This document shows positions 1,761 to 63,903 of a stretch of 64,000 bases of DNA, piece by piece. Under the pieces are notes generated by a model. It did no database searches and was not told the origin of the DNA. It saw nothing but the letters and a program-made list of their open reading frames with translations. Position numbers and translations under genes: made by a program. Source of the DNA: Gemmatimonadales bacterium. GTDB lineage: Bacteria > Gemmatimonadota > Gemmatimonadetes > Gemmatimonadales > GWC2-71-9. Location: contig JBFJHJ010000002.1 in assembly GCA_041613315.1 (NCBI GenBank), forward strand, positions 1-64,000. The letters run 5' to 3'. The first letter of the stretch is position 1. Every line of letters begins with the position of its first letter.

Positions 1761-2462
1761 ATGGACGCGCCGGCATCTGCGGACATCGATGCGCGCCTGC
1801 GGTACCATGTGTACGAGACGACGCTCCAACGCGGCTCGCCACCGTCGGTGGCCGAGCTGCGCCATGCCACCGGACTGTCGATCGAGGTGGTGCGGGCCGG
1901 CCTGGCACGGCTGGCCGCCGGGCGTGTCCTCGTTCTACAGCCGCAGAGCGGCGAGATCTTGATGGCCAATCCGTTCTCCGCCGTCCCGACCGCGTTCGTG
2001 GTCGAAACGCCGTCCTACGCGACGTTCGGCAACTGTATCTGGGACGCCCTGGGCATCCTCGCCATGCTACGCGCGCCCGGCCGGATACGCACTGCCTGCG
2101 GCTGCTGCGGGGAGGCGATGGACGTGGTCGTGACGAACGGCGAGCTGGCGGCCGCGGCCGGCGTCGTTCATTTCGCCGTTCCGGCCAGCCGGTGGTGGGA
2201 GGACATCGTCTTTACCTGAAAGACGATGCTGCTCTTCCGGTCGGAAGCACACGTCGAGCGATGGGTGCGGCAGTGGCAGCTGCCTCGAGGAGCGGTCCTG
2301 TCCCCTCAGCAGGCCTGGCGGCTGGCGGAGGCGTGGTACGGACCCGACCGGCGGCCCGCCGAGTGGCGGCGCCGCACCGTGGACGAGACCGAGGCCGTCC
2401 TTGCGGAGCTCGGCCTCACGGGACCGTATTGGAGCTTGCGCCGTTCGCCCGGCGACTCGTGA
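1761..2462 (+). CDS. MerB-like (alkylmercury/organometallic lyase family) putative selenoprotein, Sec at TGA 2217-2219
   Basis: ORFs 1761..2219 and 2226..2462 are in the same frame, joined by TGA-AAG-ACG. N-terminal HTH, NCIWDALG (MerB Cys/Asp motif), then WWEDIVFT-U-KTMLLFRSEAHVERW matching the MerB second-Cys region. Hairpin immediately downstream. Confidence 0.8.
2228..2250 (+). promoter_or_regulatory. Candidate bacterial SECIS element of the MerB-like gene
   Basis: Stem CTTCC (2234-2238) / GGAAG (2243-2247) with a GGTC loop whose first G is 20 nt after the TGA. Confidence 0.65.
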
Positions 2463-4974: not shown

Positions 4975-5097
4975 CGGGACGAGGTGTACGGGATTTACAA
5001 CTTCAACTGGGGGTACTATCTCAACAGCCTGAAGCTGCTTCGCGAGCGCGGGAAGGGGACGCCGTTCAACCCCCCCCCGCTAGCCACAACCGCGTAG
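4975..5097 (+). pseudogene. C-terminal remnant of an SRPBCC/AHSA1-like gene
   Basis: Reads DEVYGIYNFNWGYYLNSLKLLRERGKGTPF, resembling the W..YL.SLK...E.GKG.P tail of START/AHSA1 proteins. No start codon with RBS and no upstream domain. Confidence 0.55.
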
Positions 5098-5133
5098 GTC
5101 GCTAGAGGGCCGAAGCAGCGCGGCTCGACCCAT

Positions 5134-5529
5134 ATGGAGTATCTCTGCACCGTTTGCTGCAAGCGTAAGCGCCGCGACGAGGGACCCATGCCGGCGCTGG
5201 AGCGTTACCTGAGCCGGCGCATTCGGTTGGTCGCGGACCAGAGCCGGGTGCAGCGCAGGCCCCTGCTCATCCTGTCGGGTCGGTACGGATTGCTGGACGC
5301 CACGACGCCGATTCTCTGGTACGACGAAGTCCTTCGCCGAGACACCGTGGACAACCTGATCCCGCTGCTCGTGCAACAACTGATCGCGCTGGACGTGACG
5401 TCACTCGTGTTCTACGCCAGGCCGCGCACCACGCCGGGCTGGGGTCCGTATCACGCGGTGCTGGAGCGCGCGTGCGCCCGGCGGCGGATCCCGTTGCGCC
5501 TGGAACCACTGGGTCCCGAGTTCCTATGA
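5134..5529 (+). CDS. DUF6884-like protein
   Basis: C..K..PA..RY, LILSGRYGLL..PI.WYD pattern. Confidence 0.6.
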   Translation: MEYLCTVCCKRKRRDEGPMPALERYLSRRIRLVADQSRVQRRPLLILSGRYGLLDATTPILWYDEVLRRDTVDNLIPLLVQQLIALDVTSLVFYARPRTTPGWGPYHAVLERACARRRIPLRLEPLGPEFL

Positions 5530-6347
5530 CGCCACGCGCCAGACCCGGTGCGCGGGCCCGCGCTTCGGCCCGCCGCATCCAGCTCGTGCACGGGAACGCC
5601 GAAGAGGCACGTCGCCGGGCACAGGCGCTGGTGCGGGGCGGATACCGGGTCAGCTGCGACGCGCTCACCCCCGCGACCCTGCAATGGCTCAAACGTACCC
5701 CACCGGCCGCGGTGGTGATTGATCTGTCGCGCGCGCCGGCCCGGGGGCGGGACCTCGGGCTCTGGCTCCGTACACAGGCGACCACCCGCCGGGTGCCGCT
5801 GGTGTTCGTCGGCGGAGGGCCGGACACCGTTCGGCGTGCGCGGGAACTGCTTCCGGACGCGGCGTACACGACGTGGGGGCGGGTGCGGGGCACGGTGCGC
5901 GCGGCGGTCACCCACCCTCCGCACGATCCCGTCGTGCCGCGCTCGGTGTTCGCCGGCTACGCGCGTACGCCGCTCATCGCCAAACTAGGCATCACCCCGC
6001 GGTCCGTCGTAGCGCTGATCAACGCCCCGCCGGAGTTCGACCGGACGCTGGGCGAGCTTCCTGCCGGCGTCACGATCCGACGCGTGGCGCGGGGGCGTCC
6101 GGACCTGATCATCTGGTTCACCAAGACCAAGAAGGACCTCGACCGGCGCATCGCGCGGATGGCGACGCTCGTCGGTCGCGGCGGCCTCTGGATCGTATGG
6201 CCGAAGAAGGCCTCCGAACTCACGAGCGACCTGGCGCAGCCCACGGTCCGCGCCGTCGGAATGGCCGTCGGTCTGGTGGATTACAAAGTGTGTGCGATCG
6301 ACGCCGTGTGGACCGGGCTCCGCTTCTCGCGCCGCAAGCGCCGATAG
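5526..6347 (+). CDS. Degenerate receiver-like domain fused to a DUF3052-like domain
   Basis: ATGA overlap with upstream gene. N-half has PPAAVVIDLS..RRVPLVFVGG; C-half has GYARTPLIAKLGI..LWIVWPKKAS..GLVDYKVCAID..WTGLRF. Confidence 0.7.
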   Translation: MTPRARPGARARASARRIQLVHGNAEEARRRAQALVRGGYRVSCDALTPATLQWLKRTPPAAVVIDLSRAPARGRDLGLWLRTQATTRRVPLVFVGGGPDTVRRARELLPDAAYTTWGRVRGTVRAAVTHPPHDPVVPRSVFAGYARTPLIAKLGITPRSVVALINAPPEFDRTLGELPAGVTIRRVARGRPDLIIWFTKTKKDLDRRIARMATLVGRGGLWIVWPKKASELTSDLAQPTVRAVGMAVGLVDYKVCAIDAVWTGLRFSRRKRR

Positions 6348-6360
6348 CGGGAGCGGACTC

Positions 6361-6879
6361 ATGCTCCTGCTCAAGAACCTCCTGTTCACGATCGTCGTGC
6401 CCGGCACCGTCACCGTGCTGGTGCCGCACTGGATCCTGCTACGCAGCTCGCAGGTGATGCCGGACGCGTGGGGTACCCCGCAGTCCCTCGCCGTGCCCCC
6501 GCTCGTGCTCGGCGTGGCGACCTACGGGTGGTGTCTTTGGGATTTCGCGACCGTCGGACGCGGAACGCCGGCGCCGTTCGACCCGCCCCGGGTCTTCGTC
6601 GTCCGGGGTCTGTACCGGTACGTGCGCAACCCGATGTATCTCGGAGTCGTCACGATCCTCCTCGGAGAAGCGGCGTTCTTCGAATCCCGGCAACTCCTGG
6701 CGTACGCCGCTGCGGTGTTCGTGGTCTTCCATCTCGTGGTGGTGGTGTATGAGGAGGCGGCCCTTCGCCGCCGGTTCGGTCACCGCTACGAGCGCTACCG
6801 GAGAGCCGTGCGCCGCTGGCTTCCGGGGACAGGTTGCGAAGAGCGCATGGGTGCCCCACCCGGCGGCCCGACTGCGTGA
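6361..6879 (+). CDS. Isoprenylcysteine carboxyl methyltransferase (ICMT/PEMT) family membrane protein
   Basis: GRGTPAPFDPP, GLYRYVRNPMYLG, EE..LRRRFG..Y..Y...VRRW. Confidence 0.9.
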   Translation: MLLLKNLLFTIVVPGTVTVLVPHWILLRSSQVMPDAWGTPQSLAVPPLVLGVATYGWCLWDFATVGRGTPAPFDPPRVFVVRGLYRYVRNPMYLGVVTILLGEAAFFESRQLLAYAAAVFVVFHLVVVVYEEAALRRRFGHRYERYRRAVRRWLPGTGCEERMGAPPGGPTA

Positions 6880-7235
6880 CGCCCCGCGGTTCGGGCTCCT
6901 ATGACCGCATCTACGCGGTGGTGCGCCAGATCCCCGAGGGGCGGGTGGCGACCTACGGGCAGGTCGCCGCATTGGCGGGGCTTCCCGGGCACGCCCGGCA
7001 GGTCGGCTACGCGCTAAGCGCGCTGTCCGCCGACGGCACCGTCCCGTGGCACCGGGTTATCAACGCGGAGGGCCGCGTCAGCCCACGCTCTGAGCCCGGG
7101 TACGACGGCTACCAACGGCACCTCCTCCAAGGGGAAGGTGTCCGGTTCGATCGCCACGGGCGCGTGTCGCTGTCCGAGTTTCGGTGGAGGCCCGAGGAGC
7201 GGAGCGGCGAGCGCCTATGGGGACGGGGATCCTGA
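6876..7235 (+). CDS. Alkyltransferase-like (ATL/YbaZ-type) O6-alkylguanine-binding protein
   Basis: IPEGRVATYGQVA, ARQVGYAL, PWHRV (Trp replaces the catalytic Cys of MGMT PCHRV); GTGA overlap. Confidence 0.9.
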   Translation: MTPRGSGSYDRIYAVVRQIPEGRVATYGQVAALAGLPGHARQVGYALSALSADGTVPWHRVINAEGRVSPRSEPGYDGYQRHLLQGEGVRFDRHGRVSLSEFRWRPEERSGERLWGRGS

Positions 7236-7304
7236 CACGGTATCGGGGGAGGCGTCGTGCCCACGTTCCGGTTTGCGCGTTGAGCGCCAAGAGGAGACAC
7301 GATG

Positions 7305-7480
7305 TCGGGTCAGGTGTGAGTGCGGTGCGTCGAAGAGGGTGCCGAACCCAATGGCCGAGGAAGAAACGCACGCCTACATTACGAACCTGTACGTGCGGCC
7401 GACGGCGCGGGGCGCGAAAGCCCGCACGTGACCTCCGGCACGGCCTTGGCACGCCTGCCGAGCTGCTGGAGTTGGCCGAC
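7305..7480 (+). pseudogene. Eroded GNAT acetyltransferase remnant
   Basis: GQV*VRCVE (TGA 7317-7319), then a frameshift to VPNPMAEEETHAYITNLYVRPTARG, then RHGLGTPAELLEL in a further frame. Confidence 0.55.
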
Positions 7481-7511
7481 GTGTTGGCGAACTACCCCCG
7501 GAACCGTAGCG

Positions 7512-7982
7512 ATGCACGGACCTGCCACGGGAGGACCGAAGCCGGTGACATTCGCTCGTCAGGCGGGGTGGACGGCAGTGGCTGGGCTCGTGGCGGGCAT
7601 CGTGGTGCTCGGGATCGGCGGGCGCGTGGCGATGCGCGTCATCGCTCTGGCAGGGGGGCTACCACCGCAGTTTGATGTCGCCGCGACGTTGGAGGTGCTG
7701 GCCGCCGGGGCGTGGCGCGGCGTCGTCGGGGCGGCCATCTACGTGGCCCTCGCGCGGTTCCTCGGTCCGCCGCGCGTGTGGACCGGCGCCGCCACGGGGC
7801 TCGTCCTCTTCGCATTCGCCATCGCCACGCTGCGCGCGTCCATCCACGAGCAGATCGCCGCGCTGGACGTCGGGACCCTCGCCGGCGGCCTGTTCGGCGC
7901 CGTGTTCCTCGCATACGGCATAACCGTCCACTACGCTGCGGCGCGGCTCACTCGCCATACACCACCACCGGCCGACCTGTGA
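7512..7982 (+). CDS. Hypothetical membrane protein
   Basis: Four hydrophobic segments; GTGA overlap with the next gene; start uncertain (7512 or a GTG near 7545). Confidence 0.7.
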   Translation: MHGPATGGPKPVTFARQAGWTAVAGLVAGIVVLGIGGRVAMRVIALAGGLPPQFDVAATLEVLAAGAWRGVVGAAIYVALARFLGPPRVWTGAATGLVLFAFAIATLRASIHEQIAALDVGTLAGGLFGAVFLAYGITVHYAAARLTRHTPPPADL

Positions 7983-8503
7983 CCTTCGACGCCATCGATT
8001 GGGAACGCTGGACGCCGAACGAAGAGGCGACGCTCCTCTTCGTCGTGCGGGACGACCGCATCCTCCTCATTCACAAGAAGCGCGGTCTCGGTTCCGGAAA
8101 GGTCAACGGGCCGGGAGGACGCCTCACGGACGGCGAGCCGGCGGCGGACGGCGCCGTGAGAGAGTTCCGCGAGGAGCTGCGAGCCACGCCGTCCGGCGTC
8201 GAGAAGCGGGGCGAGGTGCTGTTTCAGATGACCGACGGCACGGCCATCCGAATCCACGTGTTCCTCGCGACGGGCCTCGAGGGCGAGCCGCAGGAGACGG
8301 AAGAAGCGGCGCCGTTCTGGGCCGCCGTAGACGCGATCCCCTACGACCGCATGTGGGCCGACGACCGGCATTGGATGCCGGCGATGCTGGCGGGGCGCCG
8401 ATTCGCGCTGCGCTCGCTCTTCGACGGCGAGATGCTACTCGGCCACCAGCTCTTGACTGACGGCGACGGACAACGCCCGCGCTGCGTGGGAGACGAGTCA
8501 TGA
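7979..8503 (+). CDS. NUDIX hydrolase, 8-oxo-dGTP diphosphatase (MTH1-like)
   Basis: LLIHKKRGLG.GKVNGPGG..GE..AVREFREE, IPYDRMWADD..W. Confidence 0.88.
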   Translation: MTFDAIDWERWTPNEEATLLFVVRDDRILLIHKKRGLGSGKVNGPGGRLTDGEPAADGAVREFREELRATPSGVEKRGEVLFQMTDGTAIRIHVFLATGLEGEPQETEEAAPFWAAVDAIPYDRMWADDRHWMPAMLAGRRFALRSLFDGEMLLGHQLLTDGDGQRPRCVGDES

Positions 8504-62820: not shown

Positions 62821-63903
62821 ATGTCGGGCACCCCGCGGGACGAGCGGGCGCGCATACGGCTCACAGCCCTGTCGCACGGCGCCGGTTGAGCCTGTAAACT
62901 CGGCCCGGCCGAGCTGGCGCAGGTCTTGCGCCACCTCCCGGCGGTGAGCGACCCGCGCGTGCTGGTCGCCGCCGCGACGCGCGACGACGCCGCAGTCTAC
63001 CGGATCTCCGACGACCGCGCCGTGGTGGCGACGGTGGACTTTTTCACGCCGATCGTGGATGACGCCTACGCGTTCGGCGCCATCGCCGCGGCGAACGCGT
63101 TCAGCGATCTGTACGCGATGGGCGCGACGCCGCTGTTTGCGCTCAATCTAGTGGGGTGGCCACGGACGCCCGCAATGTTGGCGCTGTTGCAGGACACCGT
63201 GCGGGGCAGCGTGGACGTGGCGCGTGAGGCCGGCGCGTTCATCGTGGGCGGCCACTCGATCGACGATGCCGAGCCCAAGTTCGGCTTGGTGGCCGTGGGA
63301 GAGGTCCACCCCGACCGGATCATCAGTATCGCCGGCGCGAAACCGGGTGACCGGCTGATCCTGACCAAGCCGATCGGCACCGGGATCCTGAGCACCGCGT
63401 TGAAGCGTGATCTCCTCGCGGAGGCCGACTTGGAGCCGGCGGTCCGGATCATGACGACGCTCAACGCCGGGGCGATGCGGGCGATGCGGGCGGTGGGAGA
63501 TGCGGTGCACGCGGCGACGGATGTGACGGGATTCGGGCTCGTGGGCCATCTGCGGAACATGGTCGCGGCCAGCCGTGTCGGTGCCCGGATCGTGGCCGGG
63601 AGCGTCCCCGTGCTCGAGCGGGTAGCGGCGCTCGCCGCGCGGGGCGCCGTGCCCGGCGGTTCGGAGCGTAACGCCGAAGCCGCGGGCGAGTATACGGTGT
63701 GGGGAGACGACGTGGACGCAACCATGCGTACGATCGTGTGCGACGCCCAGACGTCGGGCGGGCTGCTCATTGCGGTGGCACCGGAAGCAACCGACGCTCT
63801 GGTGCGCGCGCTGGAAGCCGAGGCAGCTCCGGCGGCGGCGGTCATCGGCGAAATCGTGGCGGACGCCGAGGGTCGCATCGAGGTGGTGGGGTCACGTGGG
63901 TAA
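62821..63903 (+). CDS. selD: Selenide, water dikinase (selenophosphate synthetase), Sec-containing; TGA 62887-62889
   Basis: AGGAGG RBS, ATG 62821, RLTALSHGAG-U-ACKLGP in frame with ORF 62926..63903 (DDAAVY, TVDFFTPIVDD, GGHS, LTKPIGTG, TDVTGFGL.GH, QTSGGLL). Confidence 0.95.
62890..62924 (+). promoter_or_regulatory. Candidate SECIS element of selD
   Basis: Upper stem CTCGGC / GCCGAG (62899-62913) and lower stem GCCTG / CAGGT directly after the TGA. Confidence 0.55.

Follow-up and report, generated by a model that had tools for sequence, protein, structure and literature searches.

The locus described here raises the question of whether a TGA codon that interrupts a reading frame is a stop or a codon for selenocysteine (Sec), and of what kind of protein would be made if it is read through. 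The locus lies in a stretch of 64,000 nucleotides from a Gemmatimonadales bacterium (GenBank assembly GCA_041613315.1, contig JBFJHJ010000002.1, positions 1 to 64,000 of the forward strand), which we call the window and by which positions are numbered. Two open reading frames (ORFs), 1761-2219 (152 aa) and 2226-2462 (78 aa), are in phase, with only TGA(2217-2219)-AAG-ACG at their junction, and the sequence agrees in this with an earlier first-pass annotation of the same DNA. When the single in-frame TGA at 2217-2219 is read through, the two ORFs become one plus-strand gene at 1761..2462 (ATG at 1761, terminal stop TGA at 2460-2462) for a predicted MerB-like selenoprotein of 233 aa. The reading that we favour, with moderate confidence, is that of one Sec-containing protein of 233 aa that has the MerB fold, performs MerB-type chemistry on organometal(loid)s and is encoded by a stand-alone gene.

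Four sequencing runs were compared with the gene, all of them in the form of contigs, and none showed a variant letter. X1, X2 and X4 are not independent, as these runs may represent the source samples. Run X5 is from a second, independent study, and its contig (record 12) covers 2040-2423 with 0 differences from the window. That is, the codons TGC, TGT and TGG, which had been raised as readings that would speak against Sec, did not appear in these runs.

In a scan of public species-representative genomes, at least 599 homologous stretches were found and at least 586 loci were confirmed, of which 80 were kept for comparison. A TGA stands in the same alignment column in all 80, and the arrangement is therefore far beyond chance. 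The record titles of these loci name Acidobacteriota (including Thermoanaerobaculia, Terriglobia and Blastocatellia), Chloroflexota (Chloroflexia, Ktedonobacterales and Anaerolineae), Gemmatimonadota, Eisenbacteria, Dormibacterota, Phycisphaera, Calditrichia, KSB1, Polyangiales, Proteobacteria and Actinomycetota. These amount to about ten phylum-level labels, and none of the loci is labelled Clostridia. Among the matches listed, the closest was from Gemmatimonadota (62% identity). Other genera of the window's own taxonomic family contain four full-length homologs (34-41% identity) with one TGA in the same column, and a fifth homolog, a contig-end fragment in genome G001 (47% identity over residues 144-227), also has one TGA. 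The window gene is not an isolated oddity; it is one member of a very large and widespread bacterial family.

We also surveyed 401 sampled genomes from the phylum to which the window belongs, and a match was found in 62 of them (64 match rows). Exactly one TGA was present in 53 rows (52 genomes), two TGAs in one row and none in ten. Three of these ten are full-length close relatives, and all three have Cys in the Sec column. When 1.84 billion cluster representatives were searched exhaustively with a hidden Markov model, 4060 matched at E <= 1e-3. When the best 150 of these were classified, 64 ended exactly before the column, 58 had Cys in it, 9 had another residue and 19 were partial. Thus, as the first-pass annotation had anticipated for a selenoprotein, the column holds TGA or Cys in homologs. 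The row with two TGAs (locus L145, G286:C1:3745200-3746500, minus strand) keeps the Sec-column TGA and has its extra TGA in a variable loop; it is without the N-terminal domain and has a divergent C-terminus. We rejected this G286 copy as a double-Sec form, and it is probably a decaying copy.

The comparison with profiles and structures bears out the earlier view that the protein is MerB-like, that its NCIWD motif supplies the first two catalytic residues, and that the UGA falls at the position of MerB Cys159. The Pfam MerB profile PF03243 matched the read-through product with 98.8 bits (cut-off 27) over residues 72-194, that is, across the TGA and over profile positions 1-126 of 126, and the two halves taken separately gave 55 and 23 bits. 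In the HMMER alignment to the MerB structure 1s6l, Cys92 is equivalent to MerB Cys96, Asp95 to Asp99, Cys113 to Cys117, the TGA to Cys159 and Lys154 to Cys160. NCIWD comprises residues 91-95, and the codons of Cys92-Ile-Trp-Asp95 occupy 2034..2045 on the plus strand (Cys92 at 2034-2036, Asp95 at 2043-2045). The Cys113 codon lies at 2097..2099 and the UGA, predicted to encode Sec153, at 2217..2219, both on the same strand. In the match to MerB2 5c17 (E 2.7e-9), the TGA stands opposite the Cys of 'gtCKQ'. Three of the four MerB signature residues are thus found as such (C92, D95 and C113 for C96, D99 and C117), and position 159 would be occupied not by Cys itself but by Sec, which is chemically analogous to it. 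All four, Cys92, Asp95, Cys113 and Sec153, are invariant in the 76 full-length Sec forms of alignment A3 (76/76).

An AlphaFold2 model of the read-through product, made with an alignment of 76 full-length homologs, had a mean predicted local distance difference test score of 96.3 and a predicted template modelling (TM) score of 0.92. When it was compared with the PDB by Foldseek, ranks 1-11 were all MerB or MerB2 (E 7e-11 to 3e-6, probability 1.00; TM 0.46-0.60 normalised to the query). The model indicates that the read-through product is a MerB-fold protein and that it is confidently folded. Residues ~1-70 (1761..1970, plus strand) form a predicted N-terminal winged-helix domain, as judged from a weak GntR match (22 bits, under the cut-off of 27), the helices of the model (residues 6-24, 30-37 and 41-53) and the matches to MerB structures. 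Below the MerB entries, the fold matches were winged-helix regulators only, to the N-terminal domain and with E > 0.1. The MerB structures align with the model over 189-204 columns, and the winged helix is therefore part of the MerB architecture. Residues ~195-233 (2343..2459, plus strand) form a C-terminal extension past the end of the Pfam MerB domain at residue 194. It is conserved in the subfamily with the motif …WY..DRR.P.WRR.T..E…LGLT..FW.L, in which R197, W202, R203, R204, E209, G218, F223 and W224 are near-invariant.

Downstream of the TGA lies the hairpin that the first-pass annotation had noticed, CTTCC(2234-2238)-GGTC(2239-2242)-GGAAG(2243-2247). This hairpin (2234..2247, plus strand) resembles a bacterial Sec insertion sequence (SECIS). 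Counted from the U of the UGA, positions 16-22 pair with 27-33 around the GGUC loop at 23-26, with a spacing of 19 nt. The stem has 5 bp in the window and 7 bp in 55/81 homologs (equivalent to 2232-2249), and RNAalifold returned the 5-bp core. In E. coli, the fdhF SECIS likewise carries GGUC in its apical loop and lies about as far from its UGA. In the sequences compared here, the loop was GGTC in 74 of the 81 Sec forms and in none of three Cys forms. The proportion of paired cells in the 81-sequence alignment was 94.9%, compared with 89.0% in shuffles (0/500 reached the observed value) and 40-57% when the partner was slid; double-change cells numbered 21 against 3.1 expected. For example, the pair 18-31 was CG in 74 sequences and GC in 6, and the pair 22-27 was CG in 69, AU in 4, UA in 2, UG in 1 and unpaired in 5. 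The third codon positions 18, 21, 24, 27 and 30 were 88-99% conserved, compared with 42-69% for flanking ones (83 of 85 sequences), and pairwise third-position diversity was 0.123 in the hairpin codons compared with 0.57-0.59 elsewhere. Arg-Ser-Glu is encoded by CGG-TCG-GAA in 5/5 divergent orthologs, and other invariant Arg columns vary in their codon. According to the available text of a 2026 review (PMC13188914), bacterial SECIS elements have an apical loop of 3-9 nt, an upper stem of 4-16 bp, a G in the first two loop positions, a distance of 16-37 nt from the UGA and a minimum free energy <= -7.5. The hairpin lies within all of these limits on loop, stem, leading G and spacing, and this, together with the covariation, agrees with a SECIS-like character. 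For the energy, the limit is reached only with 60 nt of context (-18.7 kcal/mol, no better than shuffles), the bare hairpin giving -5.9 to -6.5 kcal/mol.

Some results speak against a specialized role of this hairpin. The segment 2217-2276 folds with z = -0.19, and 79/200 shuffles fold as well as it does; the window's own fold is thus that of shuffles, and the hairpin is meaningful only through the comparative data. At the same time, the codons of the hairpin specify F-R-S-E, a conserved motif that is still present in the close Cys form P0163, so that the nucleotide conservation is partly at the protein level. The three Cys-form controls, a small number, had 4, 7 and 1 of 7 stem pairs, and the one with 7/7 (L143) has its stem at the same place with a different loop. 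A scan of the window with Rfam gathering thresholds gave a tRNA-Asn only and no SECIS family. Nevertheless, the comparison among homologs indicates that the GGUC-loop hairpin 19 nt downstream is under RNA-level selection, and we infer that it acts as a bacterial SECIS that recruits SelB with Sec-tRNA(Sec). As a separate observation, a short contig of another organism in the same metagenome (run X4, record 7) matches the window only at 2223-2254, the conserved hairpin stretch. The match is preceded there by ACCTGAGCA, and the contig represents another homolog with TGA at the same place.

The genome carries the genes for Sec synthesis and insertion. A Sec-type selD (selenophosphate synthetase) lies in the window itself, as had been pointed out, at 62857..63789 on the plus strand (TIGR00476, 370.7 bits compared with a cut-off of 125), with one in-frame TGA at 62887-62889 in the motif 'GAGUACK'. 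The open frame that contains it runs to 609 aa in the search output, so that selD may have other coding sequence fused to it or in front of it. In the whole genome (2.63 Mb, 82.9% complete), tRNA-Sec (77.2 bits), selA (521.9), selB (328.7) and selD (370.7) all scored over their family cut-offs, and so the selA, selB and selC that the first-pass annotation had wished to see confirmed are all present. In the phylum sample, selA was found in 321/401 genomes and in 52/52 of those with the single-TGA form, according to two listings compared by eye; the Cys-form genome G231 is absent from the list of genomes with selA. Some of the genomes counted in the background are flagged unpublished (G186 and G099 for selA; G211, G099 and G132 for MerA), and none of these has the TGA form.

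Two other readings of the TGA have to be weighed against Sec. If it were a true stop, the locus would hold two genes or one split gene, or else a pseudogene whose tail is dead. Gene callers annotate it in this manner everywhere, nearly all of the best 120 homologs in databases have 142-165 aa and cover 60-65% of the query, and in the window an ATG stands two codons past the TGA. However, the part downstream of the TGA completes the MerB domain and fold, and it keeps a length of 71-77 codons after Sec in 71 of 72 loci (the remaining one, L109, has 135 codons and may have lost its stop or become fused; it was excluded from alignment A3). The codon-position diversities downstream of the TGA were 0.372/0.301/0.586 compared with 0.367/0.314/0.568 upstream, and across 76 sequences there were 0 in-frame stops downstream compared with 112 and 105 in the other frames. 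Moreover, the would-be restart ATG is ATC or ATT in 6/76 sequences, Cys-form homologs are continuous, and the pattern is kept across the phylum-level labels named above. The split-gene and pseudogene readings are excluded by the downstream length, the coding signature and the missing restart ATGs, and we regard a true stop as extremely improbable. The other reading, in which the UGA is decoded as Trp or Cys by near-cognate decoding or under an altered code, would fit the Trp that P0012, P0013 and P0153 show in the Sec column. These entries are most likely TGA translated under another genetic code by the source pipeline. In addition, the same genes terminate in TGA in 43/72 loci (TAG in 15, TAA in 14), which means that TGA is a normal stop in these organisms, and the full Sec machinery, the presence of selA in every single-TGA genome and the SECIS-like element all argue for Sec. 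We therefore consider decoding as another residue very unlikely. Judging from the homologous sequences, the UGA at 2217 has been conserved as a sense codon, and we hold with high confidence that the gene is a genuine selenoprotein gene.

A MerB-like protein with Sec has been described before. SaoL, the 'selenocysteine-assisted organometallic lyase' (NF040728), has a CU motif and belongs to a nine-gene SAO locus of anaerobes, and the terms Acidobacteri-, Chloroflex- and aerobic are absent from the available text of its description (Haft and Gwadz, bioRxiv 10.1101/2022.07.06.499078). As far as that text goes, SaoL and the window protein share the PF03243 fold and Sec at the Cys159 equivalent, and members of both families are cut at the UGA in databases and have an unassigned substrate. 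The two differ in several respects, in agreement with the first-pass annotation, which had kept the protein apart from SaoL and had seen no SAO genes. The window protein scores 28.6-29.3 bits with NF040728 (cut-off 140). Its motif is F-T-U-K (T-U-K/R in the family), with T, N, A or S and never C before U in homologs, whereas SaoL has C-U. SaoL marks a nine-gene locus, in the part of its description available, whereas the window family is without conserved neighbours across 80 loci; SaoL occurs in anaerobes, whereas the hosts here are Acidobacteriota, Chloroflexota, Gemmatimonadota and others. Finally, unlike SaoL, the window subfamily has a C-terminal extension of ~40 aa. The SaoB and SaoC models had no match in this genome (82.9% complete), a weak absence since no control genome matched them either.

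Canonical MerB (EC 4.99.1.2; plasmid R831b, PDB 1S6L/3F0O/3F0P; MerB2, 5C17) has the same fold and N-terminal domain and the four equivalent signature positions C96, D99, C117 and C159. In contrast to it, the window protein would have Sec for Cys159 and has Lys for Cys160, the identity is 19-22%, the curated equivalog cut-offs are not reached, the gene lies outside a mer operon, and the C-terminal extension is added. The same architecture is found in the Cys-form subfamily members (for example P0163 and the homologs in G298, G231 and G169), which include the C-terminal extension and reach 50% identity; they differ in having Cys for Sec, a C-C-C triad in 24/58 and no GGUC loop in 3/3.

In the available text of two selenoproteome reviews (PMC9312934, 2022; PMC13188914, 2026) there is one MerB-type entry, SaoL, under the same accession in both, and the later review gives NF040728 and the CU motif for it. 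The merB survey of Christakis et al. required C96, D99, C117 and C159 in predicted proteins and counted MerB 0 times in Acidobacteria, once in Gemmatimonadetes and 7 times in Chloroflexi; in the text available, 'Selen-' occurs only within the reference list (PMC8261052). Because Cys159 is required in the predicted proteins, the truncated members of the present family would probably fail that survey. In the literature on MerB or alkylmercury lyase with Sec, only SaoL was relevant, supplements and subscription journals being outside the scope, so that a prior description is possible. In databases the members of the clade are named 'hypothetical protein', 'organomercurial lyase' or 'Alkylmercury lyase'. 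From these sequence comparisons, the window protein appears to belong to a large, uncatalogued Sec/Cys MerB-like subfamily that is separate from both SaoL and canonical MerB.

A tree from a quick IQ-TREE run, which we use cautiously, places 71/76 Sec forms, including the window's, in one group with 2 Cys rows (Shimodaira-Hasegawa-like approximate likelihood ratio 85). The homologs from the window's taxonomic family (L021-L024; 34-41% identity to the window protein) make up another Sec clade (support 100), which lies among Cys forms. The Sec label requires at least 2 changes on well-supported branches of this tree. The window gene groups with a metagenome-assembled genome (MAG) of Gemmatimonadota (L032), a Phycisphaera MAG and Acidobacteriota MAGs (96), and not with its own family's clade; horizontal transfer or old paralogy could account for this. 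The genome's canonical MerB is a very distant outgroup. Among the 58 Cys forms of the best 150 representatives, 24 have a C-C-C triad and 25 have C-D-C. The C-C-C triad (P0002-P0151 set; L142, L143) has Cys at the proton-donor position equivalent to Asp99. It looks like a metal(loid) site with three thiolates, which in those branches points to binding more than to protonolysis, and the subfamily may include non-catalytic binders.

What, then, might the protein do? The invariance of Cys92, Asp95, Cys113 and Sec153 makes it plausible that the protein acts on a carbon-metal(loid) bond by MerB-type chemistry. The product would be a cytosolic selenoprotein of 233 aa with the fold of MerB, the organomercurial lyase. 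During its synthesis, the hairpin would serve as a SECIS and bring SelB with Sec-tRNA(Sec) to the UGA, with selA, selB, tRNA-Sec and selD encoded by the genome. Sec153 would take the place of Cys159 beside Cys92, Asp95 and Cys113, giving a full MerB signature with Se for one S. The soft metal(loid) centre of an organometal(loid) would be held between the thiolate of Cys92 and the selenolate of Sec153, and Asp95 would protonate the leaving carbon, as in the protonolysis by MerB. Being soft and having a low pKa, Sec would help to capture substrate that is present in traces. The gene would act as a stand-alone unit, outside the mer and SAO systems. As to the substrate, one would think first of an organomercurial such as methylmercury, with organo-As, -Sn, -Pb or -Se compounds as further possibilities. 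We are slightly inclined, on the basis of the conserved residues, to regard the protein as a carbon-metal(loid) lyase.

Several points weigh against a lyase. Both Se incorporation and activity are predictions. An Hg-Se bond should, we think, hinder product release. The curated MerB equivalog models NF009710 and NF033555 gave 40 bits compared with 193 and 25.5 compared with 200. Residue 169 (2265-2267) is Val, at a position where at least 90% of the 76 Sec forms carry the Cys of an 'RWC' motif that follows the hairpin. No conserved neighbour was found among ORFs of at least 90 aa within 5 kb at 80 loci plus the window, the commonest family being present at 7/80 loci, and we therefore rejected gene context as a route to the substrate. 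MerA above cut-off occurs in 4/52 Sec-form genomes (G000, G133, G241 and G388) compared with 42/401 in the background, so that the family is not tied to mer operons. As 48/52 have no MerA above the cut-off, a partner to which Hg(II) could be passed on in the classical way is usually lacking.

With these points in mind, it is possible, although less probable, that the selenoprotein is no enzyme, but a sensor, chaperone or sequestering protein for soft metal(loid)s that binds them via Cys92/Sec153 and perhaps binds DNA with its winged helix. The winged helix itself, with its weak GntR similarity and its structural matches to regulators, would fit such a protein, as would the C-C-C triad of 24/58 Cys-form relatives, which is more binding-like than protonolysis-like, and the rarity of the MerA partner. 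However, Asp95 is kept in the Sec forms (76/76 full-length and 63/64 truncated representatives), a winged helix is ordinary MerB architecture (189-204 of ~200 residues aligned), and the conserved adjacent target gene that is usual for regulators is missing. An unlikely but distinct case is a Sec-dependent lyase that acts not on organomercurials but on organo-arsenic, -tin, -lead, -selenium or -tellurium compounds. The scores far under the curated MerB cut-offs, the great branch length between it and the canonical MerB of the same genome, which adjoins merA, and the lack of association with MerA all point in this direction, and Haft and Gwadz, in the available text, argue the same uncertainty for SaoL (bioRxiv 10.1101/2022.07.06.499078). 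On the other hand, all four MerB signature positions are retained, and the gene context gives no pointer to As, Sn or Se metabolism; the window's VOC neighbour is not conserved. Finally, it is doubtful, though worth stating, that the family is a major organomercurial (methylmercury) demethylase that has been overlooked, a Sec-activated and MerA-independent MerB with which Acidobacteriota, Chloroflexota, Gemmatimonadota and other bacteria abundant in soil, in sediment and in the sea scavenge traces of methylmercury.

If it is such a demethylase, merB surveys have missed the family since its predicted proteins end just before the catalytic residue, and environmental merB inventories and models of mercury demethylation would be substantially incomplete. 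Apart from this, the family would be a second MerB-type selenoprotein family beside SaoL and apparently a much larger one (at least 586 loci; 62/401 genomes of the phylum), and its correct annotation would add a widespread selenoprotein to bacterial selenoproteomes. Its Sec and Cys forms offer a natural pair for studying the use of selenium at a metal-binding catalytic site. Outside mer operons, the family may also connect selenium with the cycling of organometal(loid)s or mercury, a connection that can be tested.

The genes next to the window gene are a VOC/glyoxalase protein upstream (1260-1685) and a GNAT (to 3045) downstream. The first-pass annotation had placed the gene between these two, and both indeed adjoin it; neither is conserved, however, and they are therefore uninformative on function. 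That annotation had also stated that mer genes are missing. This holds for the window, but a canonical merT-HMA-merA-merB operon is present on contig 7 of the same genome (L112, G000 contig 7, 58000-72000), at 5092-7994 of that locus. It consists of MerT (5092-5430), an HMA-domain protein (5325-5819), MerA (5819-7228; TIGR02053, 558 bits; the only MerA match of the genome) and a Cys-type MerB (7221-7994; Pfam, 107.5 bits). Beside this merB, the genome thus has the Sec-type gene of the window as a second, highly divergent paralog.

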